NCBI GenBank assembly: GCA_963823555.1
Contig: CAWGMA010000001.1
Span: 448,001 to 512,000, forward strand
From: Candidatus Eiseniibacteriota bacterium
GTDB taxonomy: Bacteria; Eisenbacteria; RBG-16-71-46; CAVPCR01
Length of the DNA stretch: 64,000 bases
Reading direction: 5' to 3'
Position numbers and translations under genes: made by a program. Shown one piece after another: positions 18,201-61,345 of the stretch; position 1 is the first letter of the stretch, and each line of letters begins with the position of its first letter. The notes beneath the pieces are model-generated. The model had not been told where the DNA came from. It saw nothing but the letters and a program-made list of their open reading frames with translations, and did no database searches.

Positions 18201-18350
18201 GCGAGTAAGTGTTGGTGCGTGTGATCTGTCAGCCACAGAAATGTGCGCTCGAGTGAAGAAAGTGCTTGATCGGTAGTGGTTCCGTTCGTATCCTGATCCG
18301 GTATTCCCTCCCCGCGACAATTCAGCAAGACCCCCGGAAGGAGTATCGCC

Positions 18351-19866
18351 ATGTCGACCTCCGTTCCCGTGGTTGTGCCTGATCGAGTCGCGCCCACGCT
18401 TCCTCCCACCAATCTGACAGCGGAGACCCTGCACACGGAGTTCCTCCGCCAGGCCCGGGTCGCGAGCTGGAACACGTGGCGGCTCCTGGTCCTCATCCGG
18501 GAGATGGATGCCTGTGAGGGCTACGAGCACTTCGGGTGCACCACCCTCGCTCATTACCTCGAGCTCACGTGCGGCATCACCGGGGTCGCGGCCCGGGAGC
18601 GGATCCGGGTCGCGTTCGCCCTCGAGTCGTTGCCGGCGCTCGAGGCGGCCCTCAAGCGGGGCGAGCTCTCCTACTCCAAGGTGCGGGCGGTGACGCGGGT
18701 GGCGACGGCGGAGACCGAGGGGGAGTGGCTCCGTGCGGCGCGGGAGCGGACGGCGGAGGAGCTCGAGGTGATGGCGGCGCGGGCGACGCGGGGGGAGCCG
18801 GTGCGGAGGCGGCTCCTCACGAAGGCGGTCAACGCGCACACGACCCGGATGGTGGTGGATCTCCCGGCGGAGGAGATGATGGTGGTGATGCGGGCGCTGG
18901 AGCGGATCCGGCGTGAGGCTGGCGGGAGCCTCTCGGGGTCGGAGGCGCTCGTCTACCTGGCGGCGGACTCGCTCTCGGGGGAGGTGGGGGAGGTGAGGAC
19001 GGCGGAGCGCTACGAGGTCGTGGTGCACGTGGGCGAGGATGGTGGGAGCTGGGTCGAGACCGACGACGCGGCGGGGGAGGCGCCGTTACCGCGGGAGGTC
19101 GTCGAGCGGCTCCTCTGCGACTGCGCGCTTCGGGTGGTCAGGGAGGGGAAGGAGGGGCTCGCGGCGAGCCGTCGCACGCGCACGGTGCCCGAGGTGACGC
19201 GGCGCGCGGTGGCGCTCCGCGATGGGCATCGCTGCCGGGTCCCGGGCTGCCGGCGGCGGCTGTGGCTCGACCTCCATCATCTCGTGCCGGTGTGGGAGGG
19301 AGGGCGGCATGTGCGGTCGAACCTCGTCTACCTCTGCCGGTTCCACCATCAGCTGGTGCACGCGGGGCTCTTGCGCTGCGAGCGGCCAGGAGGGGGAACT
19401 CCGGTTCGTGGCGGTGCGCGGGGAGCGATGGGTGCTGGGAGAAGCCGGGGCGATGGGAGACGAGGAGTTCTGGGAGTGGCTCCGGGAGGCGGAGAGCGGG
19501 AGAGTGGCGCCGGAGGAGATGGAGACGATCGAGGCCGCCGCAGCCGCAGGCGGGGATCCGGAGGAGCTGCGCTCGACCTACTACCGCTCGCGCGACCGGC
19601 GGCCGTGGCAGGCGCACGAGCGGCGGGCGGCCTACCGTGTTTCCGCGGAGACTTCGGCCGGCCGCGCTCCAGCAGAAACACCTCAAGCATATGTTTCCGC
19701 GGAAACATCGCCGGCCCCGGAGCCGGAGTCCAGCTTCGACAGACCGGCGCGCACGTTTCATGCTACAATGTCCCTATCCCATTCCGCGTCTGTTGAAGGA
19801 GTCGACCTATGTTCTTGCACCGCACTGGACGCGCCCTGGCCGCACCTTCCGCAGCCGGCGGACTGA
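18351..19866 (+). CDS. DUF222-like / HNH endonuclease, probably mobile; frameshift near 19390
   Basis: N-terminal LAHYL..CG...ARERIRVA.AL..LP...GELSYSKVRA.TRVAT; VERLLCD; C-terminal LRDGHRCRVPGC..LDLHHLVPVWEGG..SNLVYLCRFHH; protein-like tail continues in the 19222-19866 frame. Confidence 0.85.
19639..19708. repeat. Two GTTTCCGCGGA(A/G)AC palindromes (encoding VSAET) near the HNH gene end
   Basis: GTTTCCGCGGAGAC at 19639-19652 and the perfect 18-bp palindrome ATGTTTCCGCGGAAACAT at 19691-19708. Confidence 0.75.
19761..19769 (+). promoter_or_regulatory. Extended -10 element upstream of the first LamG gene
   Basis: TG-C-TACAAT about 40 nt upstream of ATG 19809, which has a GAAGGAG RBS. Confidence 0.45.
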
Positions 19867-45000: not shown

Positions 45001-46856
45001 TCTATGGCTTCGACGTCTACCGGTCGATCGCCCCTGGTGGGCCGTTCGTGCGCATCAACTCGACGACGGTGGTCGGCATGTCCTTCTATGAGGACTTCCC
45101 CCTGTCGCCGCTCTCGCGCTACTACTATCGAGTGGCCGCGCGCGACTCCTCCTTCAACACCGGGGTGCAGTCGGAGGTGGTGTCGGTATCGACGAACCCG
45201 CCGCTCACCGTGGGCTGGCCGATCGAGATGAGTCAGGTCACGACCGCGGGCGCGCAGGTGTACGACTTCGACCGCGATGGCCGGGCCGAACTGGTGACCG
45301 GGTCGGACTACATCTACGCCTGGCGTGTGGACGGCCTCGAGGTGCGGGACGGCGATAACGACCCGCGCACATCGGGACCCTTCACCACCTGGGGCTACGA
45401 TCGGATCGCCGGCTTCCGCGGCGATCCGGCGATCGCCGATCTCAACCGCGATGGCTCCTTCGAGATCATCTTCGCCGGCTGGGGAGCCGATGCCGGTGAA
45501 GGCAAGCTCCACGTGCTCGCACCCGACGGCAGCCAGCGACCGGGCTGGCCGCGCACCTTCGGCTTTCCCTTCAACTGGGGCTCGGCGGTCGTCGGCCAGA
45601 TCGATGCCGACAATTCGCTCGAGGTCGTCACCATGCAGGGCCAGAACGGTGTCCTCTATGCGTTCAACCATGACGGGACCGAGCTCCTGAACGGAGACAA
45701 CAACCCATCGACGATCGGGCCCTTCTTTCTGACTGGCACCACTTTCGCCTACGGCGGGCCGGCGCTCGGCAACTTCGACGCGGATGCCCTCGACGAGATC
45801 GTGTTCGGGGTCAACTCGGCGAACGGCCGAGTCTATGTGCTCGACGGCAACGGGACGCTCCTCCCGGGCTGGCCCCGGGACACCGGCGGCCAGATCACGT
45901 CGACGCCCGCGGTGGCCGACCTCGACGGGGACGGCCGGGACGAGATCGTGATCGCCGCCGAGGACGATTCGGTCTATGTCTACCGTCATGACGGCAGCCG
46001 CTACACGGGATGGCCGCGGTGGGCGAAGGTCTTCACACCGACTTCGCGCACCTCATCACCGATCGTCGTCGACCTCGACCGCAACGGCCAGCTCGACATC
46101 CTCTTCGCGGCCAACGACGGTCGCCTCCACGCCTGGCGGCGAGACGGCACGGTTCTCCCCGGGTGGTCGAACGTCCTCTTCGCCCAGGATGCGCTCGACG
46201 CGGACGCGACCCAGTCGACGCCTACCGTGGGTGATGTCGACGGCGACAGTCAGTTCGAGGTGCTCCTCGGCGGCGAGGACGGCCGGCTCTACGGGTGGAA
46301 CCACGACGGCACCGAGCTCGCCGGGTTCCCCATCCTCCTCGAGGGCGAGGTGCGGTCGAGTGCCACGATCACCGACTTCGATGGCGACGGGCTCGTCGAG
46401 ATCGTGGTCCCGGGATACGACCAGAAGGTCTATGTGTGGGACATGGCGGGGACCTACGATCCCGCGCTCGTGCCCTGGGGAACCTTCCGCCACGACCTTC
46501 GCAACACGGGCAACGCCGGGACCTCGACCCAGATCGGCATCGACGATCCGGCGGCGGCGGCCGAGTTCGTGAGCTTCAAGCTGTGGCCCGCGCGCCCGAA
46601 CCCGTTCAATCCCTCGACCGAGATCACGCTCGACGTGCCGGCGTTGCCGGCGGATTCGCGAGTGGCGATCCGCATCTACGATGTGAGCGGGCGGCTCGCG
46701 CGCTCCCTTCTCGAAGCGCCCCTCGCGGCCGGACGCCATCGGTTCGTGTGGGATGGACGGGATGGTGAGGGTCAGGCGCTGCCCTCGGGGGTCTACTTCC
46801 TCCGCGCGGATGGTCCCGGTTTCGACGCCGTGCGCAAGCTCGTACTCATGAAGTGA
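42024..46856 (+). CDS. C25 (gingipain-family) cysteine peptidase, copy 1: propeptide, C25, Ig-like, FN3, FG-GAP/VCBS propeller, FlgD-Ig CTD
   Basis: LADWKMRKG, LIGADTEIVP, DLYYACLDGNW, VGRAP, HHVGHG, INCSS, LLGDP; D.DGDG..EIV repeats; PNPFNP..KLVLMK. Confidence 0.88.
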   Translation: MRGRMIGTMRSPGPRGAMTIAFLSAALSWILVGQAGAAPFAAVAEGDGYIVRFSPSDLKLEPSADGTRVSFGDIIGTADAPGGPGLPIVPVVLEIPVTETATGVEVIAVEEQVVATHLDVAAAEKPAWGETVYPSPARNAELYAAEPLPASWVRVAGEGFARGHRLVTVHIAPARYAPKTGELRFAEVVRFRLQTAPATDRPREQRRTASEIEDRFTATLDRALGRTPAPVLARALPAAPTPLRITFPPSVDGSPVPYVIITSEAMAPAFQTLADWKMRKGLPGSDNVGPGGAAVVTTEWIDANYPNGADRAEQVRFFLEDAYSVWGTLWVLIGADTEIVPTRYVYSDLFVLPDEPSKVLPTDLYYACLDGNWNADKDDRVGEALVDGVDLMPELFVGRAPVTNLAEAQAYVQKTLDYERTPPVSARYPASVVFLAEDLGATDGAAIAEEAYAQVHSWMGRVRMYENHASYPGAIPLTKAAALDSINAGFGWVHHVGHGFRNTMSVGPTGQISNQDVDGLTNGGRQSFIFAINCSSASIDFNSIGERWLKNALGGGAGYVGTTRIAYPQVSRRYQNEFYRLAFADSVDTAGECLFMSRLPWVAGSESDNPDRWTQFALILLGDPDLPLWTNRPQQLAGQHLAAMTLGTGSFTTTVNAGGAPVNAARVTLWAEGEDYKSGLTGTGGDVTLPFDPETTGQFLITATRRNYLPYQGTATVNASATPFLFVDGVEVDDDNAGGSVGNGDGLTNPGETVWLRAALRNTGLSPATGITATLVCENGAEYVDIFTITVTYANIPAGGVASGQAHVVRIKTSAPIGFLPRFRIDIVANEGTWSDVFVLPVYAVAMDQYAHLWTDPAPGGNGNGVVEPGESVSYAVELRNSGIGQGVGVEGWLRVLNKLTGLPDPQVTVSDNFHAYGTMNPGERRSGGFAFSLSPTAVPANLRLELTVEDNYDTLTVERSDLQIPGAVDSLRAIGSTSTIRILWERPSDPDLYGFDVYRSIAPGGPFVRINSTTVVGMSFYEDFPLSPLSRYYYRVAARDSSFNTGVQSEVVSVSTNPPLTVGWPIEMSQVTTAGAQVYDFDRDGRAELVTGSDYIYAWRVDGLEVRDGDNDPRTSGPFTTWGYDRIAGFRGDPAIADLNRDGSFEIIFAGWGADAGEGKLHVLAPDGSQRPGWPRTFGFPFNWGSAVVGQIDADNSLEVVTMQGQNGVLYAFNHDGTELLNGDNNPSTIGPFFLTGTTFAYGGPALGNFDADALDEIVFGVNSANGRVYVLDGNGTLLPGWPRDTGGQITSTPAVADLDGDGRDEIVIAAEDDSVYVYRHDGSRYTGWPRWAKVFTPTSRTSSPIVVDLDRNGQLDILFAANDGRLHAWRRDGTVLPGWSNVLFAQDALDADATQSTPTVGDVDGDSQFEVLLGGEDGRLYGWNHDGTELAGFPILLEGEVRSSATITDFDGDGLVEIVVPGYDQKVYVWDMAGTYDPALVPWGTFRHDLRNTGNAGTSTQIGIDDPAAAAEFVSFKLWPARPNPFNPSTEITLDVPALPADSRVAIRIYDVSGRLARSLLEAPLAAGRHRFVWDGRDGEGQALPSGVYFLRADGPGFDAVRKLVLMK

Positions 46857-46863
46857 TGCGGCA

Positions 46864-49800
46864 ATGATGCAATCACCAGGCAAGCTAGCGTTCGCGATCC
46901 TCCTGTTCGCGCTGTCTGCGGCACCCGTGCGCGGCCAGACCCTGCAGGTTGGCGTTGATCTGGGTGCCGGGCCGTGGGAGCTTGCCGGTGACGCGGCCGG
47001 GGTGACCCTGACCCCGCATCCGGCCTCCTGGCCCACCGAAAACGGCGGCATAGCGCAGATCATGATTGGAGAAGACGGACTGCCGCTCCTGGTCCTCGAG
47101 GTTCCGGTGAGCCCGGCGGCGCAATCGATCGCGGCGCAGGTGGCGGCATCGACCGCTGCGCCGCCGATCCCGCTCGCCGGCCCGCTCCTGATACCCGCGA
47201 TGGAGGCCTCGGGCGAGGGCTCGCCGCAAGCGCGCCCGGCGCGCCCCGCAGCCCCGGCCCGGGTCCCGGCCGTCCTTGCCGCCAAGCTCTCCCGGGCGCG
47301 GGATCGGGCCACCGCACAGGTCGTGGCGCGGGTCGCCGGGTTCGACGGCACGCATCTGCTTCCGCTGAGCCGGCTCACCATCGAAGTGACCGTCGATCTC
47401 GGTCGCGACCCGCGTGCCGACCATCGCTCCGAGCCGGACCTCGAGGCGCGCTTTGCCCGGGCGCACGGTGACCTTGCCGTGACCAGCGCAGCTCCGCCGC
47501 TGCGTGTGGATCCCGTGTTCGCTCCAGCGCTCGAGCCAACGCTCGATGGCAGCCCGATCGAGGTCGTCATCGTGACCAGCGAAGCGCTGCGCCCGGAGTT
47601 CGAGCGCCTGGCTCACTACCGTACGAGCTTCGGGCACCGGGCCGTGGTGCGCACGGTCGAGTGGATCGAGTCCGAGTACGCCGGGGCGCCGCATTCCGAT
47701 CTGGCAGCGCGGATCCGTGCTTTCATCGCGGATGCCCGTGCTCGCTGGGGCACGATGTGGGTGCTGCTCGGCGGTGATACCGACATCATCCCGGCGCGCT
47801 ACGCCGTGTCGCGCTACTTCGTCAGCGATTACGAGCTGATCCCCGCCGATCTCTACTATGCGGCTCTCGATGGCGACTGGAATGCCGACGGCGATGCCTT
47901 GATCGGTGAGGCTCCGGGAGGCGAGGGCGATCCCGGGGACGATGTCGATCTGGTGCCCGATGTGTTCCTCGGGCGGGCGCCGGTTTCGACGGCGGCGGAA
48001 GCGCGGCAGTTCGTCGAGCGCCAGATCTCCTACGAGGAGGGTGCAGGCGCCGCCGAGGACTACCCGGCCTCCGTGCTCTTCCTGGCGGAGGTCCTGTTCG
48101 AGTCCCTCGATGGGGCGGAGATCGCCGAGGACACTCGGCAGCACCTGCCCCCGGACGTGTCGGCTACTCGCCTCTACGAGAACACCGCGGCCTATCCGGG
48201 ATCCGAGCCGGAGACCCCGGCCTCGGTGCTCGCCGCCCTCGAGCACGGGTACGGGGTTGTCGAGCACGTGGGTCACGGGTTCCGCAACACGCTCTCCGTG
48301 GGCCCCGGTTCCATCAACAACGCCGACATCGATGGCCTGGGCAACCGGCCGCGGCTGCCCGTGTTCGTCGCGCTCAACTGCACATCGGCGGCCATCGATT
48401 TCAACTCGATCGGCGAGCGGTTGGTCAAGAACCCCGCCGGCGGGGCCATCGCCTATGTCGGGTCCTCGCGCTATGCCTTCCCCGGTCATGCTCGTCTCTA
48501 TCAGGAGGCCTTCTTCCGATCTGCCTTCACCGACAGCCTGCGCACGGTCGGTGAGGTGTTGCAGCGCACGCGGAGCTTGCTCGCCCCGCTTGCCGTGATC
48601 GAGGGGGCGCACCGCTGGACCCAGTTCGCGCTCACGGTGGTCGGGGACCCGATGACGCCGCTGTTCACCCGGCGTCCCGAGCCTCTGGTCCTGCATCACG
48701 ATCCATCGATCGCGCCGGGGACCGAGACGATGGCCATCCAGGTCACGGCCGGCGGCGCGCCGATCGCGGATGCCCCGGTCGCCCTCCTGGGGGCCGACGG
48801 CAGCCTGGCCACCGCGGGAACCGACGCGGCAGGTCTCGTCATGCTCCCGGTCCCGGTGGGGGCCCGGGGTCCCTTCATGGTGGCCGCCAGCTTCCCGGAT
48901 CGCTGGCCCTCGCGTTCGGGGCTGGCGGTCGTCGGAAACGGGGGCTCGTACCTCGTGGTGCGCGATCTCACGGTCGATGACCGAGCCGACGGCGACGGCG
49001 ACGGGAGCGCCGAACCGGGCGAGACCGTGGGTCTCGGGATCACGGTCGAGAATGCCGGCGGGGAAGTGTCATCGGCAGGAGAGGCGCGGATCGCGCTCAG
49101 CTCCGGACCCGGCGCCATGATCGATGGGCAGGCGGCGTTGCCATCTCTCGCGCCCGGTGCCTCGGCCGCCATCGGGTCCTTCAGCCTGGCCGTGGATCGT
49201 GGGGCCGCGGACGGGGACATCCTGGCGCTCGAGATCATCATCGAGGCGGGCCCCGAACGGCGATCGGTGCGTCGCGTGCTGGCGGTGGGCGGGCCGCGGC
49301 TCCGCCTGGCCGGGCACGTGATCGATGGCAACGGGGAAGTGGATCCCAACGAGACCGTGCGCTACTCGCTCCTCCTCACCAACGACGGCGGGGGCCCGGC
49401 ACGGGCCGTGACCGCCGCGGCGCGCGTCCTCGATATCGCGACCGGGGAGCCCGCGGCCGGCGTCACGCTTCTCGATGGTCGCTCGCGCTTCGGCGATCTC
49501 CGGCCGGAGGAGACGACCGCCGGAGATCCCTTCGTTTTCGCGCTCGGTTCCGCGGTCGATCCCGATTCCCTTCATCTCGAGGTGCGGGTGACGACGGCGC
49601 TCGGCGCGGAACCAGCTCGTCTCCTCGATTTCGTGCCCCCGGGGCCGCCGACCGCGCTCCGCACCCGTGGCTCGGAGCGCGCCGTGCTCGTGAGCTGGAC
49701 TGCGCCCCCGGACAGCGACCTCGCTGGCTACGAGGTCGAACGGGCGGAGGATGGTGGCGGGCCGTTCGTTCTCGTGACGCCGCGCCCGGTGGCGCAATCC

Positions 49801-51609
49801 TCGTTCACCGATCGCGCGCTCCCCGAACTCGCCACCTTGACCTACCGGGTGGCGGCCGTCGATTCATCCGGCAATCGCAGCGTGGTGTCGGCCACCGTCG
49901 AGGGCACGACCAATCCGGGGCTCCATCCGGGATGGCCGGTGGTCATGGGCAGCGAGACGCCGTCCTCGCCGGTCCTTGCCGATCTCGACGGCGATGGCGC
50001 CGATGAGATCGTGACCGGAGCCGATGCGTTGTATGCCTGGCACGGCGATGCCACGGAGCTCCGCAATGGTGACAATGATGTGCTCACGAGCGGCGTTTTC
50101 ACCACCGACGGCATTGTTGCGGGGTCTCGCGGGTTTCACGCGGTGCCGGCGATCGCCGATCTCGATGGCGATGGCGAGCTCGACCTTATCGGCGTGGCCT
50201 GGGAGGCGGCCCAGGTGTTTGCGTGGAGGACGGACGGCTCGCTGCTTCCGGGTTGGCCGCAGAGTCTGGGCCGGGCGCCCAACTGGGGGTCGGCGGCGGT
50301 CGGTGATCTCGACGGCGACTCGGATCTCGAGGTGACCGTGCTCGGCGGTGGCGATGGTCAGGTCTATGCCTGGCACCACGACGGGAGCGAGGTGGCCGAT
50401 GGTGACGGGAACCCCGAAACGCACGGCGTCTTGCTCTCGACCGGGGACCGGTTCAGCTTCGGCACGCCGGCGCTTGCCGATCTGGACGGCAATCCTGGGC
50501 TCGAGATCGTGATCGGCATCGACATCTACCCGTTCACCGGGGGGGTCGGAGGATTGCATGCCCTGACGGCGACCGGTGCCGAGGTGCCCGGATTCCCGCG
50601 CTTCCTCGGGAGCAAGATCTCCGCTTCGCCCGCCATCGGCGATCTCGACGGCGATGGCACACTCGAGATCGTGATCGCGGTCGAGGATGACTCGCTCCGC
50701 GTGCTGGAAGCCGATGGTTCGCCGAGGCCCGGCTGGCCGCAGTGGGCTTTCATCAGGAACGCCCCGGCGCGCACTTCTTCGCCCGTCTTGGCGGATCTCG
50801 ACGGCGATGGACGACTCGAGATCGTGTTCGCCGAGAACTCGGGAGCAGCCTCCCATGTCGCGCATCTCAGGGTCTTTCGCGACGATGGCTCCGTGTTCCC
50901 GGGATTCGAGAACGTGACTTTTGCCACCGACCCCGAGGCGGTGAATGCGGGCGCCACGCAGTCGACGCCGGTCATCGGGGATGTCGACGGTGATACCCGC
51001 TTCGAGATCCTGCTCGGGGCCGAGGACGGGCGGCTCTATGGCTGGCATGACGACGGCAGTGTGGCCGGGGGGTTCCCGATCCAGACCGAAGGTGAGATCC
51101 GGGGGGCGGCGGCCCTCGGCGATGTCGACGGGGACGGCCTGCTCGAACTGGTGGTCGCCGGCTGGGACAAGAATCTCTATGTCTGGGATCTCGCCGGAGA
51201 GGCGCTCCCGGATCGGGTGCCCTGGCCCTTCTTCCATCGCGATGTGCGAAACAGCGGAAACGTCACGTTACCCATGCCGCGCGCCACGGAAGGAGGGAGT
51301 CGGGATCTGGATCCCGACGCAGCATTCCATCGTGGACCGCAGTTATTCGCTCCAGAGCCGACGCCGGCCAATCCGGCGACCGAGATCCGCTTCTTGCTGC
51401 CGGAAGGCGGTCCGACCCGGGTCGTCCTCTATGGCGTGGACGGCCGCGCCGTCCGCCGCTTGCATGCCGGTCCCCTGGCTCGTGGCGAGCACCGGATGCG
51501 CTGGGACGGCCGTACCGATTCCGGCGCGCCGGCCCCTTCAGGTGTTTACTGGATCCATCTTGCTGCGCCCGGAGGAGAAGCGACGACCCGTATCGTCGTG
51601 ATCCGCTGA
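46864..51609 (+). CDS. C25 cysteine peptidase, copy 2 (divergent N-terminal propeptide)
   Basis: LLGGDTDIIP, EHVGHG, LNCTS, VGDP; FG-GAP repeats; degenerate CTD PTPANP..RIVVIR. Confidence 0.86.
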   Translation: MMQSPGKLAFAILLFALSAAPVRGQTLQVGVDLGAGPWELAGDAAGVTLTPHPASWPTENGGIAQIMIGEDGLPLLVLEVPVSPAAQSIAAQVAASTAAPPIPLAGPLLIPAMEASGEGSPQARPARPAAPARVPAVLAAKLSRARDRATAQVVARVAGFDGTHLLPLSRLTIEVTVDLGRDPRADHRSEPDLEARFARAHGDLAVTSAAPPLRVDPVFAPALEPTLDGSPIEVVIVTSEALRPEFERLAHYRTSFGHRAVVRTVEWIESEYAGAPHSDLAARIRAFIADARARWGTMWVLLGGDTDIIPARYAVSRYFVSDYELIPADLYYAALDGDWNADGDALIGEAPGGEGDPGDDVDLVPDVFLGRAPVSTAAEARQFVERQISYEEGAGAAEDYPASVLFLAEVLFESLDGAEIAEDTRQHLPPDVSATRLYENTAAYPGSEPETPASVLAALEHGYGVVEHVGHGFRNTLSVGPGSINNADIDGLGNRPRLPVFVALNCTSAAIDFNSIGERLVKNPAGGAIAYVGSSRYAFPGHARLYQEAFFRSAFTDSLRTVGEVLQRTRSLLAPLAVIEGAHRWTQFALTVVGDPMTPLFTRRPEPLVLHHDPSIAPGTETMAIQVTAGGAPIADAPVALLGADGSLATAGTDAAGLVMLPVPVGARGPFMVAASFPDRWPSRSGLAVVGNGGSYLVVRDLTVDDRADGDGDGSAEPGETVGLGITVENAGGEVSSAGEARIALSSGPGAMIDGQAALPSLAPGASAAIGSFSLAVDRGAADGDILALEIIIEAGPERRSVRRVLAVGGPRLRLAGHVIDGNGEVDPNETVRYSLLLTNDGGGPARAVTAAARVLDIATGEPAAGVTLLDGRSRFGDLRPEETTAGDPFVFALGSAVDPDSLHLEVRVTTALGAEPARLLDFVPPGPPTALRTRGSERAVLVSWTAPPDSDLAGYEVERAEDGGGPFVLVTPRPVAQSSFTDRALPELATLTYRVAAVDSSGNRSVVSATVEGTTNPGLHPGWPVVMGSETPSSPVLADLDGDGADEIVTGADALYAWHGDATELRNGDNDVLTSGVFTTDGIVAGSRGFHAVPAIADLDGDGELDLIGVAWEAAQVFAWRTDGSLLPGWPQSLGRAPNWGSAAVGDLDGDSDLEVTVLGGGDGQVYAWHHDGSEVADGDGNPETHGVLLSTGDRFSFGTPALADLDGNPGLEIVIGIDIYPFTGGVGGLHALTATGAEVPGFPRFLGSKISASPAIGDLDGDGTLEIVIAVEDDSLRVLEADGSPRPGWPQWAFIRNAPARTSSPVLADLDGDGRLEIVFAENSGAASHVAHLRVFRDDGSVFPGFENVTFATDPEAVNAGATQSTPVIGDVDGDTRFEILLGAEDGRLYGWHDDGSVAGGFPIQTEGEIRGAAALGDVDGDGLLELVVAGWDKNLYVWDLAGEALPDRVPWPFFHRDVRNSGNVTLPMPRATEGGSRDLDPDAAFHRGPQLFAPEPTPANPATEIRFLLPEGGPTRVVLYGVDGRAVRRLHAGPLARGEHRMRWDGRTDSGAPAPSGVYWIHLAAPGGEATTRIVVIR

Positions 51610-51662: not shown

Positions 51663-54600
51663 ATGAACCAGCGACGATCGATCCTCCTTTCCATTCGAGA
51701 ACCGGCCGCGGTGCTGAGTTGTTTGCTCCTTACCTCCGTGATTGCCGCCGGTGTGGTGGCGGCTCTTCCGGCGAGCCTCCGCGAGGAGGTGCGCTTCGCG
51801 GCGAGCGATCTCCGGCTGGAGGAACAGGCGGACGGCACGGTGGTGGTGCGCTACCCGGGAGCGGTAGGGTCGCCGGCCGGGTCGCCGGATCTGCCGCTCG
51901 TGCCGGTGTGGATCGAGGTGCCATCGGGGATGCGGGTGGTGGGGGTCAAGAGCCGGGCGCAGGGGGTGGCGGAGCTGGGAGTGGTGCGGGTGCGACCGGT
52001 GGCGCCGGACGTGCGCGTGGGTGAGGCGGAGAAGGCGGCGGTGGCGGACGCGGAGGTGTACGGGAGCGCGGGGCCGGTGCCTGGGGAGTGGGCGGTGCTC
52101 GCGAGCGAGGGGACGCTCCGCGGTCACCAGCTGGCGGGGGTGCTGGTGTCGCCGGTCAGGTGGTCGCCCGGGACGGGTCAGCTCGAGCGGGCGAGCGTGG
52201 TCGAGGTCGAGCTCGTCCTCGAGCCGGGGCGGCCGGCAGGGATGCCGGAGGCGGTCGAGCGGCGGCGGGTGTCGGCGGCGATCGAGTCGAAGTTCGAGGC
52301 GGACGCATCGAAGTGGATCCGCGGGTTCACCCCGGCGGCGGCGACCGAGGGTGGGGGCGATGCGGGGAGCGGTCCGGCGGGTCCGGGGCCGTACCAGCCG
52401 ACGTTCCGGCCGACGACGGACGGGAGCGCGGTGGAGTACGTGGTGGTGACGTCGGCGGCGCTGGCGGGGGAGTTCCAGCGGCTGGCGGACTGGAAGACGC
52501 AGAAGGGGGTGCAGGCGGCGGTCAGGACGGTCGAGTGGATCGACCAGACGTACCCGAACGGGGTGGACCGCGCGGAGCGGGTCCGGTTCTTCATCCGTGA
52601 CGCGTACCAGAACTGGGGGACGATGTACGTGCTCCTCGGTGGCGACACCGACATCGTGCCGCCCCGCTATGCGCAGATGGTCCTCTTCGACGAGCGGATT
52701 CCCGCCGACTACTACTTCGCGTGTCTCGACGGCAACTGGAACTACGACGGAGATTCGCGCTTCGGCGAGTCGCTTTCCGGCGGTCCCCCTGGGGATCAGT
52801 GCGATCTGCACTTCGAAGTGACGGTGGGTCGGGTTCCGGCGTCGACTCCGGATCAGGTCGCCCGCTTCGTCGATAAGTTGCTCCTCTACGAACAGAACCC
52901 GCCGGTCGAAGCACGCTACCCCGCGTCGATCCTGGTGCTGGCTGAGCGCCTCTTCACCACGCTTCACGGAGCGGATATCGCGGAGGAGGCGCTGGCCCTG
53001 GTGCCGTCCTGGATCCGCAAGGTGCGTCTCTACGAGGAGTCGGCGAGCTACCCCGGATCCATCGAGCTCAACCGGCAGGTGGCGGTCGATTCGATCAACG
53101 CCGGATTCGGCATCGTGCACCATGTCGGCCACGGCTATCGCAACACCATGTCGCTGGGTAGTGGCACGATGTCGAACGGGGATGCGGACAACCTGGTGAA
53201 CGCGCCGCGGAACTCGGTGGTGTTCGCCATCAACTGCAGCTCCGCCTCGATCGACTTCAACTCGATCGGGGAGCGCTGGGTGAAGAACGCGAACGGCGGC
53301 TCGATCGCCTATCTGGGCACCTCCCGCCTGGCCTTCGTAACGGCCTCGCGCGCCTACCAGGGCGAATGGTATGCCACCGTCTTCCAGGATTCGACTCGAT
53401 CGCTCGGTCTCGCCACCGATGAATCGCGTGCCATCTTCATTCCGGCCGCCCAGTTTGATGGCGTTCAGCGCTGGAACTTGCTGGCGACGACGTTGCTGGG
53501 GGATCCGGAGGTGGATCTGTACACGAACGCGGTGGTGCCGCTCGTGGTGACGCATGCCTCGACGACACCGATCGGGGGGGCGCCCTTGTCGGTGACGGTG
53601 ACGGCCGGGGGGTCGCCGGTGGCGGGAGCGACGGTGACGTTGTGGAAGGCGGGGGAGAGCTATGTCAGGGGGGTGACGGGAGCGAACGGTCAGGCGCAGC
53701 TGGCGGTGGGGGCGAACACGCCGGGGGCGATGACGGTGACGGTGCACAAGAGCTACTACCGGCCGTACGTGGGGACGGTGACGGCGACGAGCGCGAGCGG
53801 GCCGTACGTGTACGTGACGGGTCTGGTGGTGGACGACGACAACGTGGGCCAGTCGAGCGGGGACGGGGACGGGCGGGCGGATGCGGGGGAGACGGTGGAG
53901 CTCCGGGTGACGCTCCGGAACGGGGGAGGGGGGCAGGTGACGGGGCTGGTGGGGACGATCTCGGAGAACGATCCGGAGAACGCGCTGACGATCGTCCAGG
54001 CGACGGTGAGTTACGGGACGATCGCTCCGGGGGGTAGCACGCAGGGCAGCGGGGCCTTCGTGGTGACGATCGCGGAGAACGCGCCGGTGGCGTACCAGCC
54101 GGTGCTGACGGTGGTGGCGGCGGGGACGCAGGGGACGTGGGTGGACCCGGTGGTGCTGCCGCTCCGGCGGCCGTACCTGGAGCACTGGGGTCACGTGGTG
54201 GACGACGCGTCGCCGCGAGGCAACGGGAACGGGGTGGTGGAGGCGGGGGAGGAGATCTACTACCGGGTGACGGTGAAGAACACGGGGCAGGACGGATCGG
54301 TGGGGCTCGCGGGATCGCTCCGGGCGCTCCAGGTGTCGGACCGGCAGCCGCACCCCGGGGTGACGGTGGGGGATGGGGCATCGAGCTTCGGGACGCTCAC
54401 GCCGGGTCAGCAGGTGGAGGGGGATCGGTTCGCGTTCACGCTGAGCAGCCTGACCGATCCGACGACGGTGCTCCTCGAGCTCACGCTGACCGACGCGCTC
54501 GGGGTGGCGGCCGTTCAGTATATCGATCTGACTTCACCCTCTCCGCCCGGCACCTTCTCCGCCTTTGGCTCGCCGGGGACGATTCTCTTGACCTGGGAGC

Positions 54601-56495
54601 GAGCGCAGGCAAGCGACATCCGTGGCTATGACGTGCTTCGTTCGATCTCGCCCGGGGGCCCGTTCCAGCGGATCAACGCCTACACGGTGGACGGGACGGC
54701 GGCGTACGAGGATCGTGGGCTGCCGGCGTTGACGCGGTATTACTACCAGGTGGTGTCGCGGGACTCATCGTACAACGCGTCGGTGCCGTCGGCTGTCTTC
54801 TCCGGGACCACCAACCCGCCCGCGGCCGCCGGCTGGCCCCAGGAGCTGGCCCAGCAGAGCTCCTCCTCTGCCGTCATCGCCGATATCGACGGCGGCGCGC
54901 ACATCGAGCTCCTCTGCGGCTCCGATATGATGTATGCCTGGCACGGAGACGGCACCGAAGTCGTCGATGGCGATGATGACTCGCGCACCAACGGGCCCTT
55001 CTCCCTCCACGGGTGGAGCACGGATTCGTTCGGGTTCGCGTCCACCCCCGCCGTCGGCGATGTGGACGGCGACGGCGACCTCGAGGTCGCCAGTGTCGGG
55101 TTCACCTCCGATTCTCTCTTCGTGTGGCAGGGTAACGGACAGCTGTTCCCCGGCTGGCCCAAGTGGGTCATGGATGACCTCAACTGGGGATCGGTGGTGC
55201 TTGCCGATCTGGACCGGGATGGCGACCTGGAGATGATCGTCTGGGCTGCCAATGGCGGTCGACTCTTCGCCTGGCATCACACCGGACAGGAAGTGGTCGA
55301 CGGCGACGCCAATCCCGCCACCGACGGCATCCTGGCTCGTGTCCTCGGCACATCCTTCAACTACGGATCAGCCGCCGTCGGCAATCTCGACCAGGATCCC
55401 GAGCTCGAGATCGTGGCCCCCGTCAACTTCTCCCAGGATGACACGGGTCGCGTATACGCTTTCAACATCGACGGCAGCATGGTAGCAGGATGGCCCTTCA
55501 CGACCGGAAGCGGCACTCCCTCCGAGGTCAGCTCCTCCCCGGTCATCGCTGATCTCGACGGCGATGGAGACGAGGAGGTCATCTTCGCAGCCGAGCGCGA
55601 TTACGGTCGCCTCTACGTCCTCAATGGCAACGGCACCGTGGCCACGGGATGGCCGCAAAACGTGATCGCGCTCTCTGCGGATGCGCGACTGCCATCACCC
55701 GCGGTGGGCGACGTGGATGCCGATGGCGCGCTCGAGATCGTCTACGCCGATACCGAAGGCAAGCTCTTCGTGTTCGAGCGCAATGGCGCCCTGCATCCCG
55801 GATTTCCCCTCTGGTACTATCCCGATCCGCCAGGCGAGGCGACGCAGTCGACCCCGGTGCTCGGTGATATCGACGGGGATCCCGAACTGGAGATCGTGTT
55901 CGGAGACGAGTCGGGTGTGGTGCGTGGCTACAACGCCGATGGCTCGTTGGTCGCCGGGTTCCCCATCCGGCTCACTGGAGAGGTGCGCTCCTCGCCTGCG
56001 CTCTGGGACCTGGATCGCGACGGGCTCCTGGAGATGGCGGTCGTCGGGTTCGATTCCCAAGTCTACGTGTGGGATCTCACTGCCGAGTTCAACCCGCAGC
56101 GGTTGCCGTGGCCCTTCTTCCGCCACGACACGCGGAATACCGGGCGCTTCGTGACCGCGGTGCAGCCGATCGGTATCGCCGAGCCGGCAGCTGCTCCTGA
56201 GGTTGCCAGCGCCGCATTCCATGGCGCTCACCCCAATCCGTTCAATCCAACGACGACCCTCGGATTCGATGTGCCGGGCGAGACCGGTGGCGCTCAGATG
56301 GTGACGCTGGCCATCTACGACGTCGGCGGCCGCCTCTTGCGGCAGTTGATCGATGGACCGATCGCGACCGGATCCCATGCGGTCGAATGGGACGGTCGGA
56401 CGGTCGCCGGAGCTCAGGTGAGCTCGGGGGTCTATTTCGCCCACATCACGATCGGCGACTTTGTTGCCACCCGGAAGCTCGTCGTCGTGCGCTGA
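51663..56495 (+). CDS. C25 cysteine peptidase, copy 3
   Basis: Same architecture; HHVGHG and INCSS; ends PNPFNP..KLVVVR. Confidence 0.88.
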   Translation: MNQRRSILLSIREPAAVLSCLLLTSVIAAGVVAALPASLREEVRFAASDLRLEEQADGTVVVRYPGAVGSPAGSPDLPLVPVWIEVPSGMRVVGVKSRAQGVAELGVVRVRPVAPDVRVGEAEKAAVADAEVYGSAGPVPGEWAVLASEGTLRGHQLAGVLVSPVRWSPGTGQLERASVVEVELVLEPGRPAGMPEAVERRRVSAAIESKFEADASKWIRGFTPAAATEGGGDAGSGPAGPGPYQPTFRPTTDGSAVEYVVVTSAALAGEFQRLADWKTQKGVQAAVRTVEWIDQTYPNGVDRAERVRFFIRDAYQNWGTMYVLLGGDTDIVPPRYAQMVLFDERIPADYYFACLDGNWNYDGDSRFGESLSGGPPGDQCDLHFEVTVGRVPASTPDQVARFVDKLLLYEQNPPVEARYPASILVLAERLFTTLHGADIAEEALALVPSWIRKVRLYEESASYPGSIELNRQVAVDSINAGFGIVHHVGHGYRNTMSLGSGTMSNGDADNLVNAPRNSVVFAINCSSASIDFNSIGERWVKNANGGSIAYLGTSRLAFVTASRAYQGEWYATVFQDSTRSLGLATDESRAIFIPAAQFDGVQRWNLLATTLLGDPEVDLYTNAVVPLVVTHASTTPIGGAPLSVTVTAGGSPVAGATVTLWKAGESYVRGVTGANGQAQLAVGANTPGAMTVTVHKSYYRPYVGTVTATSASGPYVYVTGLVVDDDNVGQSSGDGDGRADAGETVELRVTLRNGGGGQVTGLVGTISENDPENALTIVQATVSYGTIAPGGSTQGSGAFVVTIAENAPVAYQPVLTVVAAGTQGTWVDPVVLPLRRPYLEHWGHVVDDASPRGNGNGVVEAGEEIYYRVTVKNTGQDGSVGLAGSLRALQVSDRQPHPGVTVGDGASSFGTLTPGQQVEGDRFAFTLSSLTDPTTVLLELTLTDALGVAAVQYIDLTSPSPPGTFSAFGSPGTILLTWERAQASDIRGYDVLRSISPGGPFQRINAYTVDGTAAYEDRGLPALTRYYYQVVSRDSSYNASVPSAVFSGTTNPPAAAGWPQELAQQSSSSAVIADIDGGAHIELLCGSDMMYAWHGDGTEVVDGDDDSRTNGPFSLHGWSTDSFGFASTPAVGDVDGDGDLEVASVGFTSDSLFVWQGNGQLFPGWPKWVMDDLNWGSVVLADLDRDGDLEMIVWAANGGRLFAWHHTGQEVVDGDANPATDGILARVLGTSFNYGSAAVGNLDQDPELEIVAPVNFSQDDTGRVYAFNIDGSMVAGWPFTTGSGTPSEVSSSPVIADLDGDGDEEVIFAAERDYGRLYVLNGNGTVATGWPQNVIALSADARLPSPAVGDVDADGALEIVYADTEGKLFVFERNGALHPGFPLWYYPDPPGEATQSTPVLGDIDGDPELEIVFGDESGVVRGYNADGSLVAGFPIRLTGEVRSSPALWDLDRDGLLEMAVVGFDSQVYVWDLTAEFNPQRLPWPFFRHDTRNTGRFVTAVQPIGIAEPAAAPEVASAAFHGAHPNPFNPTTTLGFDVPGETGGAQMVTLAIYDVGGRLLRQLIDGPIATGSHAVEWDGRTVAGAQVSSGVYFAHITIGDFVATRKLVVVR
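51768..52670 (+). repeat. Near-identical block A (propeptide and start of C25 domain), repeated at ~56621-57517 and ~61615-62500
   Basis: Direct comparison shows long identical runs with only scattered substitutions and one short variable patch. Confidence 0.9.
53482..54505 (+). repeat. Near-identical block B (Ig-like region), repeated at ~58332-59355 and 63311 to window end
   Basis: Offsets 4850 and 9829; sequence essentially identical from TGGCGACGACGTTGCTGGGG onward. Confidence 0.9.
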
Positions 56496-56545: not shown

Positions 56546-59500
56546 ATGATGAACCGCTGCCACGGCATGCCGCTCTTGATCCTGATGCTCTTGGTATCCG
56601 TCGGCGCCGCCCACTCGAGCCCGGCGAGCCTCCGCGAGGAGGTGCGCTTCGCGGCGGGCGATCTCCGGCTGGAGGAACAGGCGGACGGCACGGTGGTGGT
56701 GCGCTACCCGGGAGCGGTAGGGTCGCCGGCCGGGTCGCCGGATCTGCCGCTCGTGCCGGTGTGGATCGAGGTGCCATCGGGGATGCGGGTGGTGGGGGTC
56801 AAGAGCCGGGCCCAGGGGGTGGCGGAGCTGGGAGTGGTGCGGGTGCGGCCGGTGGCGCCGGACGTGCGCGTGGGTGAGGCGGAGAAGGCGGCGGTGGCGG
56901 ACGCGGAGGTGTACGGGAGCGCGGGGCCGGTGCCCGGGGAGTGGGCCCGGCTCGGGAGCGAGGGGACGCTCCGCGGTCACCAGCTGGCGGGGGTGCTGGT
57001 GTCGCCGGTCAGGTGGTCGCCGGGGACGGGTCAGCTCGAGCGGGCGAGCGTGGTCGAGGTCGAGCTCGTCCTCGAGCCGGGAGCGGTAACTTCGGGTGTC
57101 GTCGAGCGGCGGCGGGTGTCGGCGGCGATCGAGTCGAAGTTCGAGGCGGACGCATCGAAGTGGATCCGCGGGTTCACCCCGGCGGCGGCGACCGAGGGTG
57201 GGGGCGATGCGGGGAGCGGTCCGGCGGGTCCGGGGCCGTACCAGCCGACGTTCCGGCCGACGACGGACGGGAGCGCGGTGGAGTACGTGGTGGTGACGTC
57301 GGCGGCGCTGGCGGGGGAGTTCCAGCGGCTGGCGGACTGGAAGACGCAGAAGGGGGTGCAGGCGGCGGTCAGGACGGTCGAGTGGATCGACCAGACGTAC
57401 CCGAACGGGGTGGATCGGGCGGAGCGGGTCCGGTTCTTCATCCGTGACGCGTACCAGAACTGGGGGACGATGTTCGTGCTCCTCGGTGGCGACACCGATA
57501 TCGTGCCGCCCCGCTATATCGAGAGTTCCTACTACGGCCAGGAGTCGATTCCCGCCGACTACTACTACGCGTGTCTCGACGGCAACTGGAACTACGACGG
57601 AGATTCGCGCTTCGGTGAAGCGCGATTCTATGCCGTGCAGTCCGATTCAGTGGACTTCCATTTCGACGTCTCGGTCGGCCGGGCGCCGGTTTCGACGCTG
57701 ACCGAGGCGGATACTTTCGTCGACAAGACACTCCTCTACGAGCAGAACCCACCCATCCTGGCGCGCTATCCGGCGTCGATCCTGGTGCTGGCTGAGCGCC
57801 TGTTCCCGAGCACCCATGGTGCCGACATCGCGGAGGAGGCGCTGGCCCTGGTGCCGTCCTGGATCCGCAAGGTGCGTCTCTACGAGGAGTCGGCGAGCTA
57901 CCCTGGATCCATCGAGCTAAACCGGCAGGTGGCGGTCGATTCGATCAACGCCGGATTCGGCATCGTGCACCACGTCGGCCACGGCTACCGCAACACGATG
58001 TCGGTGGGCGCGGGAACGCTCAACAATGCCGACTCCGATGCGCTCATGAACGCACCGAAGAACTCGGTGGTGTTCGCCATCAACTGCAGCTCCGCCTCGA
58101 TCGATTTCAATTCGATCGGGGAGCGCTGGGTGAAGAACGCGAACGGCGGCTCGATCGCCTATCTGGGCACCTCCCGCCTGGCCTTCATCGCTGCCTCCGA
58201 GGCGTATCAAAACGCCTGGTACTCGACCGTCTTCCAGGATTCGGTGCGTTCGATCGGGACGGTCTCCAACCTGGGCCGCATGGCCCTCTATCCCAACGCG
58301 GAGTATGAGTCGGCGAACCGCTGGAATCTGATGGCGACGACGTTGCTGGGGGATCCGGAGGTGGATCTGTACACGAACGCGGTGGTGCCGCTCGTGGTGA
58401 CGCATGCGTCGACGACACCGATCGGGGGGGCGCCCTTGTCGGTGACGGTGACGGCCGGGGGGTCGCCGGTGGCGGGAGCGACGGTGACGTTGTGGAAGAG
58501 CGGGGAGAGCTATGTCAGGGGGGTGACGGGAGCGAACGGTCAGGCGCAGCTGGCGGTGGGGGCGAACACGCCGGGGGCGATGACGGTGACGGTGCACAAG
58601 AGCTACTACCGGCCGTACGTGGGGACGGTGACGGCGACGAGCGCGAGCGGGCCGTACGTGTACGTGACGGGTCTGGTGGTGGACGACGACAACGTGGGCC
58701 AGTCGAGCGGGGACGGGGACGGGCGGGCGGATGCGGGGGAGACGGTGGAGCTCCGGGTGACGCTCCGGAACGGGGGAGGGGGGCAGGTGACGGGGCTGGT
58801 GGGGACGATCTCGGAGAACGATCCGGAGAACGCGCTGACGATCGTCCAGGCGACGGTGAGTTACGGGACGATCGCTCCGGGGGGTAGCACGCAGGGCAGC
58901 GGGGCCTTCGTGGTGACGATCGCGGAGAACGCGCCGGTGGCGTACCAGCCGGTGCTGACGGTGGTGGCGGCGGGGACGCAGGGGACGTGGGTGGACCCGG
59001 TGGTGCTGCCGCTCCGGCGGCCGTACCTGGAGCACTGGGGTCACGTGGTGGACGACGCGTCGCCGCGAGGCAACGGGAACGGGGTGGTGGAGGCGGGGGA
59101 GGAGATCTACTACCGGGTGACGGTGAAGAACACGGGGCAGGACGGATCGGTGGGGCTCGCGGGATCGCTCCGGGCGCTCCGGGTGTCGGACCGGCAGCCG
59201 CACCCCGGGGTGACGGTGGGGGATGGGGCATCGAGCTTCGGGACGCTCGTGCCGGGTCAGCAGGTGCAGGGGGATCGGTTCGCGTTCACGCTGGGGGGAG
59301 CGACCGACCCGACGACGGTGCTGCTCGAGCTCACGCTGACCGACGCGCTCGGGGTGGCGGACTTGGAGCTGCTGGACGTGCTGCATCCGGACTCGCCGGA
59401 CACGCTGAAGGCTTTCGGTTCGCCGTCCTCGATCCGCTTGACGTGGAACCGCTCGGCGGCGACGGATGCGAAGGGTTACGACGTGTACCGGTCGAGCTCG

Positions 59501-61345
59501 CCCGGGGGGCCGTTCCAGCGGATCAACGCCTACACGGTGGACGGGACGGCGGCGTACGAGGATCGTGGGCTGCCGGCGTTGACGCGGTATTACTACCAGG
59601 TGGTGTCGCGGGATTCGTCGTACAACGCGTCGGTGCCGTCGGTGGTGATCTCGGGGACCACCAACCCGCCCTACACCCCCGGCTGGCCGATCGAGCTCGC
59701 CCAGCAGAGCGCATCCTCCGCCGTCATCGCCGACATCGATGGTGGCTCACACACCGAGATCATGTGCGGCGGCGACGTGCAATACGCCTGGCATGGGGAT
59801 GGCACCGAGGTCGTCGACGGCGACGACGATGATCGGACCAACGGCCCCTTCTCCCTCTACGGCCGGCGGACCACGACCTCCGGCTTCGCTGCCACGCCGG
59901 CGATCGGCAACATCGACCTCGCCGGTCGTCTGGAGGTGGTCAACATCGGCTTCACAGCCGACTCGCTCTACGTATGGAACAATGTCGGACAGCTGATGAG
60001 TGGTTGGCCCAAGTGGGTCATGGGCGACTTCAACTGGGCCTCGGTCATGCTTCCGGATCTCGATCTCGACGGAGATCTCGAGATCGTGGCCTGGGCGGCG
60101 AATGGCGGTCGCCTCTTCGCCTGGCATCACAACGGGCAGGAAGTGGTCGACGGCGACGCCAATCCCGCCACCGATGGCATCCTGGCCCGGATCCTCGGCG
60201 CGTCGTTCAACTACTCGAGCCCCGCGGTCGCCAATCTGGATGCCGATCCTCAGCTCGAGATCCTCGTTGCGGTCAATCGGTCCACGGACAATACGGGAGG
60301 CGTCTATGCCTTCAACACGAACGGGACCCCGGTTCCCGGCTGGCCCTTCCTGACCGGCAGCGCGCAGAATCCATCGGAGGTCAGCTCATCCCTGGCGGTG
60401 GCCGACCTCGACGGTGACGGAGACGAGGAGATCATCTTCGCAGCCGAGCGCGACGGCGGCCGCGTCTATGTGCTGAATGGCAACGGGACCGTGGTTCCGG
60501 GATGGCCGAAGGCTGCTGCTGCCTATACCCAGGACGCGCGCCTGCCATCTCCCGTGGTCGCGGATCTAGATGACGACACCTCCCTCGATGTCGTCTTTCC
60601 CGATACCGACGGCAACCTCTGGGCCTGGAACCGCAACGGCGCGGTCCTGCCCGGATATCCGGTCGTCTACTATCCCAACGCCCAGACGCAGACGACGCAG
60701 TCGACACCGGCCGTGGGAGACGTCGACGGCGATCTCGACCCCGAGGTCATCTTCGGTGACGAGGCCGGTTTCGTTCACGGCTACAACGGTGACGGCACAC
60801 TGGCGGCGGGCTTCCCCATCCAGGTGGGGGGCGAGGTCCGTTCGACTCCGGCGATCTGGGATCTGGACCGGGACAACCGGGTCGAGGTCGTCGCCGTCTG
60901 CTACGACTCCAATGTCTATTCCTGGGATCTCCCGGGACGCTTCAATCCACAGCGCATCCCGTGGCCATTCTTCCGCCATGACATCCGCAACACGGGACGC
61001 TTCCTCACTTCGGTTCAGATCGGAATCGACGAGCCGGATGCGGTGCCGGTGCCGGGCGTGGCCGCTTTCCACCTGGCGCGACCCAACCCGTTCAATCCGG
61101 CGACCACGCTGGCCTTCGACGTGCCTGGCAAGGCAGGCGGCGCGCGACCGGTGACCCTCGACATCATCGATGTCTCGGGACGTCTGGTGCGTCGCCTCCT
61201 CGACGGCCCCGTCGAGACCGGTTCCCATGCCCTGGTCTGGGATGGGCGCCAGTCGAGCGGAGGCATGTCTCCCTCCGGCGTTTACTTCGCCAGGATCGCG
61301 ATCGGCAGCTTCACCGCCACCCAGAAGCTCACGCTCGTGCGATGA
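56546..61345 (+). CDS. C25 cysteine peptidase, copy 4
   Basis: ATG 56546 after GGAG gives a signal peptide; HHVGHG and INCSS; ends PNPFNP..KLTLVR. Confidence 0.88.
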   Translation: MMNRCHGMPLLILMLLVSVGAAHSSPASLREEVRFAAGDLRLEEQADGTVVVRYPGAVGSPAGSPDLPLVPVWIEVPSGMRVVGVKSRAQGVAELGVVRVRPVAPDVRVGEAEKAAVADAEVYGSAGPVPGEWARLGSEGTLRGHQLAGVLVSPVRWSPGTGQLERASVVEVELVLEPGAVTSGVVERRRVSAAIESKFEADASKWIRGFTPAAATEGGGDAGSGPAGPGPYQPTFRPTTDGSAVEYVVVTSAALAGEFQRLADWKTQKGVQAAVRTVEWIDQTYPNGVDRAERVRFFIRDAYQNWGTMFVLLGGDTDIVPPRYIESSYYGQESIPADYYYACLDGNWNYDGDSRFGEARFYAVQSDSVDFHFDVSVGRAPVSTLTEADTFVDKTLLYEQNPPILARYPASILVLAERLFPSTHGADIAEEALALVPSWIRKVRLYEESASYPGSIELNRQVAVDSINAGFGIVHHVGHGYRNTMSVGAGTLNNADSDALMNAPKNSVVFAINCSSASIDFNSIGERWVKNANGGSIAYLGTSRLAFIAASEAYQNAWYSTVFQDSVRSIGTVSNLGRMALYPNAEYESANRWNLMATTLLGDPEVDLYTNAVVPLVVTHASTTPIGGAPLSVTVTAGGSPVAGATVTLWKSGESYVRGVTGANGQAQLAVGANTPGAMTVTVHKSYYRPYVGTVTATSASGPYVYVTGLVVDDDNVGQSSGDGDGRADAGETVELRVTLRNGGGGQVTGLVGTISENDPENALTIVQATVSYGTIAPGGSTQGSGAFVVTIAENAPVAYQPVLTVVAAGTQGTWVDPVVLPLRRPYLEHWGHVVDDASPRGNGNGVVEAGEEIYYRVTVKNTGQDGSVGLAGSLRALRVSDRQPHPGVTVGDGASSFGTLVPGQQVQGDRFAFTLGGATDPTTVLLELTLTDALGVADLELLDVLHPDSPDTLKAFGSPSSIRLTWNRSAATDAKGYDVYRSSSPGGPFQRINAYTVDGTAAYEDRGLPALTRYYYQVVSRDSSYNASVPSVVISGTTNPPYTPGWPIELAQQSASSAVIADIDGGSHTEIMCGGDVQYAWHGDGTEVVDGDDDDRTNGPFSLYGRRTTTSGFAATPAIGNIDLAGRLEVVNIGFTADSLYVWNNVGQLMSGWPKWVMGDFNWASVMLPDLDLDGDLEIVAWAANGGRLFAWHHNGQEVVDGDANPATDGILARILGASFNYSSPAVANLDADPQLEILVAVNRSTDNTGGVYAFNTNGTPVPGWPFLTGSAQNPSEVSSSLAVADLDGDGDEEIIFAAERDGGRVYVLNGNGTVVPGWPKAAAAYTQDARLPSPVVADLDDDTSLDVVFPDTDGNLWAWNRNGAVLPGYPVVYYPNAQTQTTQSTPAVGDVDGDLDPEVIFGDEAGFVHGYNGDGTLAAGFPIQVGGEVRSTPAIWDLDRDNRVEVVAVCYDSNVYSWDLPGRFNPQRIPWPFFRHDIRNTGRFLTSVQIGIDEPDAVPVPGVAAFHLARPNPFNPATTLAFDVPGKAGGARPVTLDIIDVSGRLVRRLLDGPVETGSHALVWDGRQSSGGMSPSGVYFARIAIGSFTATQKLTLVR

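Follow-up and report, generated by a model that had tools for sequence, protein, structure and literature searches.

The window, a stretch of 64,000 nucleotides (C1:448001-512000 of the source genome, G000), ends in a tandem array of six genes for C25 peptidases of about 1,600 codons each, five of which begin inside it (Table 1). Copy 6 follows copy 5 beyond the window and is without homogenisation, and three further full-length paralogues lie elsewhere on the same contig (C1), outside the array; each of the nine members of the family that were found is a full-length open reading frame of about 1,600 codons or more. A Pfam scan of copies 1-4 detects Peptidase_C25 (PF01364, 206-229 bits against a cut-off of 23), FG-GAP repeats and a FlgD_ig tail in all four and Propeptide_C25 in three, and the HG and C motifs of copy 3 align with the gingipain R structure 1cvr. 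The aligned residues are presumably the catalytic His and Cys of C25 peptidases. Domains and motifs together predict that the array genes belong to the gingipain-like peptidase family C25. Well above 100 tblastn matches to the FlgD_ig/T9SS-like tail occur genome-wide, which suggests that a very large set of proteins may be exported via one sorting signal. An HNH-domain gene further upstream has a weak match to an IscB model, limited to its HNH part, and its family is possibly a mobile element with an orientation bias.

Table 1. Features of the window; G and C counts as given for each segment.
Feature	Position	Strand	Remarks
HNH-domain gene	18297..19796	+	five-copy dispersed family, 92-96% identical; all leading-coded; G share 0.60-0.67 in main segments
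C25 peptidase copy 1	42024..46856	+	Propeptide_C25, Peptidase_C25, FG-GAP, FlgD_ig; no homogenisation, no skew
C25 peptidase copy 2	46864..51609	+	no homogenisation, no skew
C25 peptidase copy 3	51663..56495	+	His-Gly and Cys motifs align with gingipain R
Block 1, copy 3	51777..52640	+	propeptide and start of catalytic domain; four-fold G147/C31
Mosaic patch common to copies	52995..53315	+	over active-site motifs; homogenised, skew slight (G32/C23)
Block 2, copy 3	53481..54419	+	between catalytic domain and propeller; 98-99% identity in copies 3-5; four-fold G185/C18
Diverged gap, copy 3	54420..54668	+	copies 4 and 5 closer to each other here; G28/C19
Short shared patch, copy 3	54669..54764	+	four-fold G17/C1
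Unshared tail, copy 3	54825..56492	+	FG-GAP propeller and FlgD_ig; G94/C176; pairs with congener orthologues
C25 peptidase copy 4	56549..61345 (start approximate)	+	shared blocks ~56628-57587 and ~58308-59747
C25 peptidase copy 5	61489..64000, continuing to 66312 past the window	+	shared blocks ~61608-62627 and from 63258

Parts of these genes are nearly uniform between copies; block 1 is 96-98% identical across copies 3, 4, 5 and a distant paralogue at C1:81-86 kb. A sequence-only reading had claimed that such blocks switch abruptly to G-ending codons, and its hand counts (G33/C11, G30/C16 and G15/C24) are exact. The skew persists at four-fold degenerate sites, where the G share of 53481-54419 is 0.91 against a leading-strand baseline of 0.448 (p=2e-44); the four-fold count of block 1 was made over 51780-52640, and the short patch (54669-54764) and the unshared tail were counted in the same way (Table 1). 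After adjustment for amino acids, the shared codons of copy 3 have a G share of 0.84 versus 0.46 expected (z=16, the null standard deviation of this z in unique genes being about 1.3). Since the skew holds at four-fold sites and after this adjustment, it is not an effect of amino-acid composition.

The suggested correlation between skew and inter-copy identity is also present: across 288 family windows, which are not independent, Spearman's coefficient is 0.39, and the mean G share rises from 0.40-0.48 in windows under 90% identity to 0.74 at 90-95% and 0.84 beyond 95%. That the switch follows the identity boundaries is true of blocks 1 and 2 and of the short patch, but not of the catalytic patch at 52995-53315, which is 97% identical and hardly skewed (G share 0.58, p=0.057). 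Likewise, the diverged gap inside the span 53482..54800 first described reads G28/C19, and Leu is barely shifted (CTG 18 vs CTC 17). The label 'FN3' given to the short patch is unconfirmed, as copy 3 has no Pfam FN3 match. Pieces of the block recur with 0-2 differences in contigs of public runs from other studies, and the skewed block is therefore no assembly artefact; these runs cover at most 0.36 of the sampled words, as contigs only, and the run with the highest coverage is possibly the source sample itself. The G-over-C skew of the blocks is thus confirmed.

The history of the blocks differs from that of the genes that carry them. In trees (FastTree) of tails and blocks from the source genome (G000) and a congeneric genome (G001), the tails pair by orthologue across the two genomes in five of five cases (support 0.86-1.0; 71-79% identity), while the blocks cluster by genome, block 2 being 98-99% identical inside the source genome and at most 79% identical to the congener. 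As judged from this opposition between tails and blocks, the shared blocks in copies 3-5 are shown to be the product of gene conversion, not of recent duplication; the copies are older than the speciation, yet their segments group within genomes, as in concerted evolution. In function, the split would be one between structural segments that are homogenised and substrate-facing parts that are kept different. The skew accompanies conversion elsewhere in the family. The congener's own two copies are 95% alike with a GC skew of 0.14-0.17, against -0.01 in its third, unconverted copy; the distant paralogue at C1:81-86 kb has block 1 but not block 2, and its skew is confined to block 1; unhomogenised C25 arrays in five relatives (G003, G010, G034, G023 and G017) are unskewed.

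The direction of change in block 2 was scored against the paralogue at C1:81-86 kb, which lacks block 2 homogenisation. The block has 50 changes of C>G and 4 of G>C, 21 of A>G and 1 of G>A, 8 of T>G, 7 of C>T and 8 of T>C, and in the tails C>G and G>C number 23 and 32. At two-fold pyrimidine sites the change is towards C, by 103:14 in blocks and by 350:126 in tails. The change is a gain of GC combined with a preference for G over C. Deamination is rejected, as the change is C>G, C>T is not in excess and two-fold sites gain C. The proposal that the homogenising process is strand-asymmetric is supported by the conversion trees together with the ratio of C>G to G>C.

Repeats in the source genome were defined by shared 24-mers; self-blastn at 88% missed the array because its long matches include diverged parts. 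Genes came from a custom caller (3,372 genes, 84% coverage) that does not detect every gene, which makes genome-wide counts approximate; the strand of key repeated genes was confirmed with Pfam, and overlaps at contig ends were excluded. Among 20,742 windows of 100 codons, a G share of at least 0.8 is found in 43 of 339 repeated windows and in 1 of 20,403 unique windows, and 43 of the 44 extreme windows are repeated; the skew is therefore not equally common in single-copy genes.

Unique genes reverse their skew at dnaA (C3:95 kb) and around C1:1.5 Mb, which marks origin and terminus. With each repeated site counted once, the eight families coded on the leading strand have z values of 16.1, 10.6, 6.2, 5.0, 3.9, 2.0, 0.6 and -0.5 (at least 3.9 in five of them), and the eight coded on the lagging strand have values of -8.0, -4.8, -4.4, -3.3, -1.8, -1.5, -0.7 and +8.9 (-3.3 or lower in four), the lagging-strand shift having about half the strength of the leading-strand shift. 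Domain types reverse with the strand (G share of 0.72 in leading and 0.25 in lagging PKD, of 0.65 and 0.22 in HNH), and two pairs whose members lie on opposite strands are unskewed. Against this polarity stand the lagging-coded IS256 pair, which has the z of +8.9 and a G share of 0.72, and the lagging-coded paralogue at C1:81-86 kb, whose block 1 is G-rich on the coding strand (0.80), for which import from the three leading copies is a post hoc explanation. HNH and IS-like families are possibly mobile, with a composition of their own; homologues of the HNH gene in G001 and G003 occur in both orientations with a G share of 0.35-0.42, and the 47 stretches examined of these two genomes contain no homogenised lagging-only family. 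Overall, in this one genome, the sign of the skew mostly tracks the direction of replication, with G on the leading strand, and not the coding strand.

Several further elements have an unusual composition. A leading-strand PKD-repeat gene of 2,700 codons in the congener (G001:C4:381770-389885, L186) has homogenised repeats with G316/C76. A transposase-like family of the source genome, mostly fragments, lies at C4:19935-27339, C4:506399, C2:674717-702630 and C2:723336; its G-rich strand is the leading strand in all but one match, and we take the family to resemble IS91/ISCR. At C3:409000-433000 (L021), a tyrosine-recombinase-like ORF precedes many 170-bp repeats with G+T skew, presumably an integron with attC sites. 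Two G3-rich, apparently single-copy stretches, C3:531369-534326 and C4:137060-140587, have paralogues at 68-73% identity and look like relics, candidates for eroded conversion tracts.

Among the repeated skewed cases is the tufA/tufB pair of the source genome, with a G share of 0.85-0.90; the ribosomal-protein, fusA and rpo genes beside it range from 0.25 to 0.59. Within the class, 17 of the 41 genomes searched have a tuf match, kin among them not being independent, and tuf exceeds its flanks in all 24 loci that have flanks (0.62-0.91 vs 0.41-0.59), one locus being without them. A comparison across phyla started from 80 named tuf loci, of which 51 were kept because their four-fold G+C sites number 100 or more in tuf and 90 or more in the flanks, thresholds that were set after the values were seen; one of three Burkholderia loci was then set aside. 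Copies were counted in 50 genomes and sorted by hand into 20 two-copy, 11 single and 19 ambiguous, 'single' meaning single or diverged with the second site spanned. The median shift of tuf over its flanks is +0.16 with two copies (n=20) vs -0.02 with one (n=11; p=3e-4), a contrast in which leading-strand position is assumed and most inter-copy identities are inferred from equal scores (99.3% where measured, in G057 and G060); with all ambiguous genomes counted as single and the unpublished genomes G062 and G072 included, p=0.025. The two-copy Alphaproteobacteria Humitalea, Azospirillum and Stappia have shifts of +0.16 to +0.31, and the single-copy Komagataeibacter, Sphingomonas and Bradyrhizobium of -0.01 to -0.07. 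Six of the 20 two-copy genomes shift by 0.05 or less; G057 has a shift of -0.10, and the copies of G060 lie in opposite orientation with mixed local polarity. The tuf genes of G003, G028, G008, G015 and G023 (L048, L052, L056, L057 and L046) are G+T-rich, with four-fold T of 30-47 and A of 4-14, which may reflect translational selection; these five genomes have mutS1 and no NucS match.

The direction of the shift and its link to copying are observations; their best reading, to which we assign a probability of roughly 55%, is a biased gene conversion that is oriented by replication. Copies 3-5 are old paralogues in which conversion has repeatedly overwritten the structural segments. Wherever copies differ by C or G, the copy that places G on the leading strand would prevail more often, and tracts that have long been converted would drift to G at silent sites, atop the general gain of GC. 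As the molecular step, we tentatively propose, at less than even odds, that C:C mismatches escape MutS repair. Donor sequence would enter at the fork as the lagging-strand copy; an incoming C facing a template C would form a C:C mismatch that MutS ignores, fixing G in the leading-strand sense, and the reverse G:G mismatch would be repaired away. Passages on E. coli recombineering report that annealing prefers the lagging strand and that C-C is unrepaired while G-G is well repaired; this precedent uses phage recombinases, and the strand bias is absent without them (PMC5021808). In Salmonella, unequal mismatch repair is described as shaping tuf conversion tracts (PMC5485169).

The source genome contains mutS1 and mutL, NucS was not found in its 92.5% complete assembly, and a search for AddA gave no match above the cut-off. 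Across the class, mutS1 is present in 40 of 41 genomes, and weak NucS_C matches occur in 4 of 41. Single frameshifts in the source genome's mutS1 (C1:1421967-1424500) and near the end of its tufA (C3:539450) are probably assembly indels, that in mutS1 because tufA carries one too. It is important to point out that some families are weak or flat against the model, three on the lagging strand having z of -0.7 to -1.8 and two on the leading strand being unshifted, and that C:C escape alone does not predict the A>G excess of 21:1 or the gain of C at two-fold sites.

The link to repeats and the polarity would be explained equally well if conversion were itself mutagenic, with a copying step that leaves one strand exposed or relies on an error-prone polymerase and so generates C>G in the leading-strand sense, heteroduplex repair being unbiased. 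Error-prone synthesis has been proposed by the authors who described GRINS, gene-converted segments of about 1 kb that are more than 90% identical and have an intense GC skew (PMC8256042, 2021). We nevertheless regard mutagenic conversion as unlikely, since C>T is not in excess and two-fold sites gain C, four-fold sites lose both A and T, a better fit to a fixation bias than to raised mutation, and the shift is seen in every neighbouring-base context, weakest after 5' T. The order of events could also be reversed, a segment that became G-rich by chance or selection being copied more because G-rich strands or G-quadruplexes favour recombination, an idea found in Fig. 6B of the GRINS paper (PMC8256042) and in the Borrelia vls model. 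The high G4Hunter scores of the blocks, the overwriting of a distant, oppositely oriented paralogue by block 1 and the existence of a few G-rich single-copy stretches fit such an order. However, G-runs and G4 motifs in the blocks are not in excess over 500 synonymous shuffles, which preserve codon counts and test arrangement alone, and the selection for G-runs put forward by the sequence-only reading is thus unsupported. Codons free of runs are shifted as much as GGG (G:C-ending counts ACG 48:2, CCG 38:3 and TCG 21:0, vs GGG 59:6), tuf is unskewed when single-copy, and the two strongest single-copy cases are those with old paralogues that resemble relics; we consider a skew that preceded copying improbable.

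Transcription, R-loops or translational selection for G-ending codons would tie the skew to the coding strand, and every strong window case is indeed G-rich on that strand, as are the lagging paralogue and IS256. Yet four lagging-coded families are significantly C-rich, the neighbours of tuf (ribosomal-protein genes, fusA and rpoBC) are unskewed, and the switch is located within single ORFs, which makes a coding-strand effect quite improbable; the R-loop intermediate suggested earlier is disfavoured because lagging-strand repeats are mostly C-rich. Finally, the blocks could derive from a donor with different codon usage, to which their sharp edges and the G3 bias that transposases of the source genome have of their own would lend themselves. 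We consider this origin very improbable: core tufA/tufB are equally skewed and share the pattern across the class, the protein encoded in the block is that of the unskewed paralogues, and the congener has homogenised its own version, 79% identical, with the same sign of skew.

Replication-biased conversion may, as a speculation that we hold with considerable doubt, be general between loci in bacteria, the spelling of the tracts recording the blind spots of mismatch repair, with MutS leading to G and NucS to G+T and GRINS being a footprint of conversion. NucS cuts G/T, T/T and G/G but not C/C, A/A or A/C (PMC11109965). If this were true, MutS hosts, blind to C:C, would drift to leading-strand G, as here and in duplicated tuf, and NucS hosts would drift to G+T, as in the correlated skew that Streptomyces GRINS display; GRINS themselves would be a footprint and not a promoter of conversion, and tuf a universal marker. 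The source genome offers controls that are missing from polyketide clusters, namely paralogues of one family with and without conversion, repeats coded on either strand relative to a mapped origin, and the duplicated tuf genes. Given the copy-number contrast of tuf, any collection of complete genomes can serve to test whether conversion causes skew; the C:C-escape model predicts the sign of the skew, the effect of inversion and a difference between MutS and NucS hosts. Should it prove right, the codon usage of tuf would be a biased standard for optimal codons wherever a GC-rich genome has two copies, and skew at silent sites could serve to reveal earlier conversion.

No paper was found that connects a leading-strand G skew with converted repeats or with tuf, with subscription and older papers outside the search. 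The surviving sign is the same as in lambda Red recombineering, C on the lagging and G on the leading strand, but that system uses artificial oligonucleotides and phage recombinases, and natural interlocus conversion is an analogy to it (PMC5021808). The segmental conversion, G-rich coding strand and GC skew recall Borrelia vls as described in PMC8001052; here, however, silent partial cassettes are absent, all nine copies being full-length, the constant and not the variable parts are skewed, and G-runs and G4 motifs are not in excess. The concerted evolution of tufA and tufB likewise involves interlocus conversion, with tracts from several hundred bases up to 1 kb long, and unequal mismatch repair (PMC5485169, PMC6053082), but the passages of these papers retrieved by term search mention no G-over-C skew ('skew' has no matches in PMC6053082).

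The closest relative is GRINS, whose origin its describers state to be unknown (PMC8256042). 'Tuf', 'mismatch' and 'orientation' are absent from the main text of that paper, and 'tuf', 'mismatch' and 'lagging' from its supplement text, picture tables and datasets aside. GRINS are defined as duplications of more than 500 bp and more than 80% identity with mean absolute GC and TA skews each above 0.15 in 150-nt windows. By blastn, instead of the authors' aligner, the blocks in copies 3-5 are 960-1470 bp long, the short patch at 54669-54764 alone being too short; mean identity is 0.95-0.98 (alignments 96-99%), and GC skew at the 80% threshold is 0.25-0.30 vs 0.079 in non-duplicated windows. TA skew falls below the limit, at 0.087-0.130 in six array blocks with a background of 0.112; block 2 of copy 3 has means of 0.30 for GC and 0.13 for TA. 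The two skews correlate at r of -0.04 to -0.68 in the blocks, unlike the usually positive correlation of GRINS, among which some anticorrelated cases are reported (PMC8256042). The G+T-rich tuf genes are nearer to the classical GRINS pattern. Judged by the published text, the hosts here are C25 peptidases and tuf, not polyketide synthases, the change is a C>G transversion and not a C>T or A>G transition, and the sign is one throughout, where GRINS of polyketide synthases show both signs on one strand, and tracks the direction of replication, which the GRINS paper set aside (PMC8256042). Common to both are converted segments of more than 90% identity, an intense GC skew that peaks at third positions, abrupt edges, intact proteins and eroded or single-copy relics. 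The feature works like GRINS but lies outside their definition on account of TA skew; it is a variant of this known but unexplained phenomenon that is limited to GC and oriented by replication.
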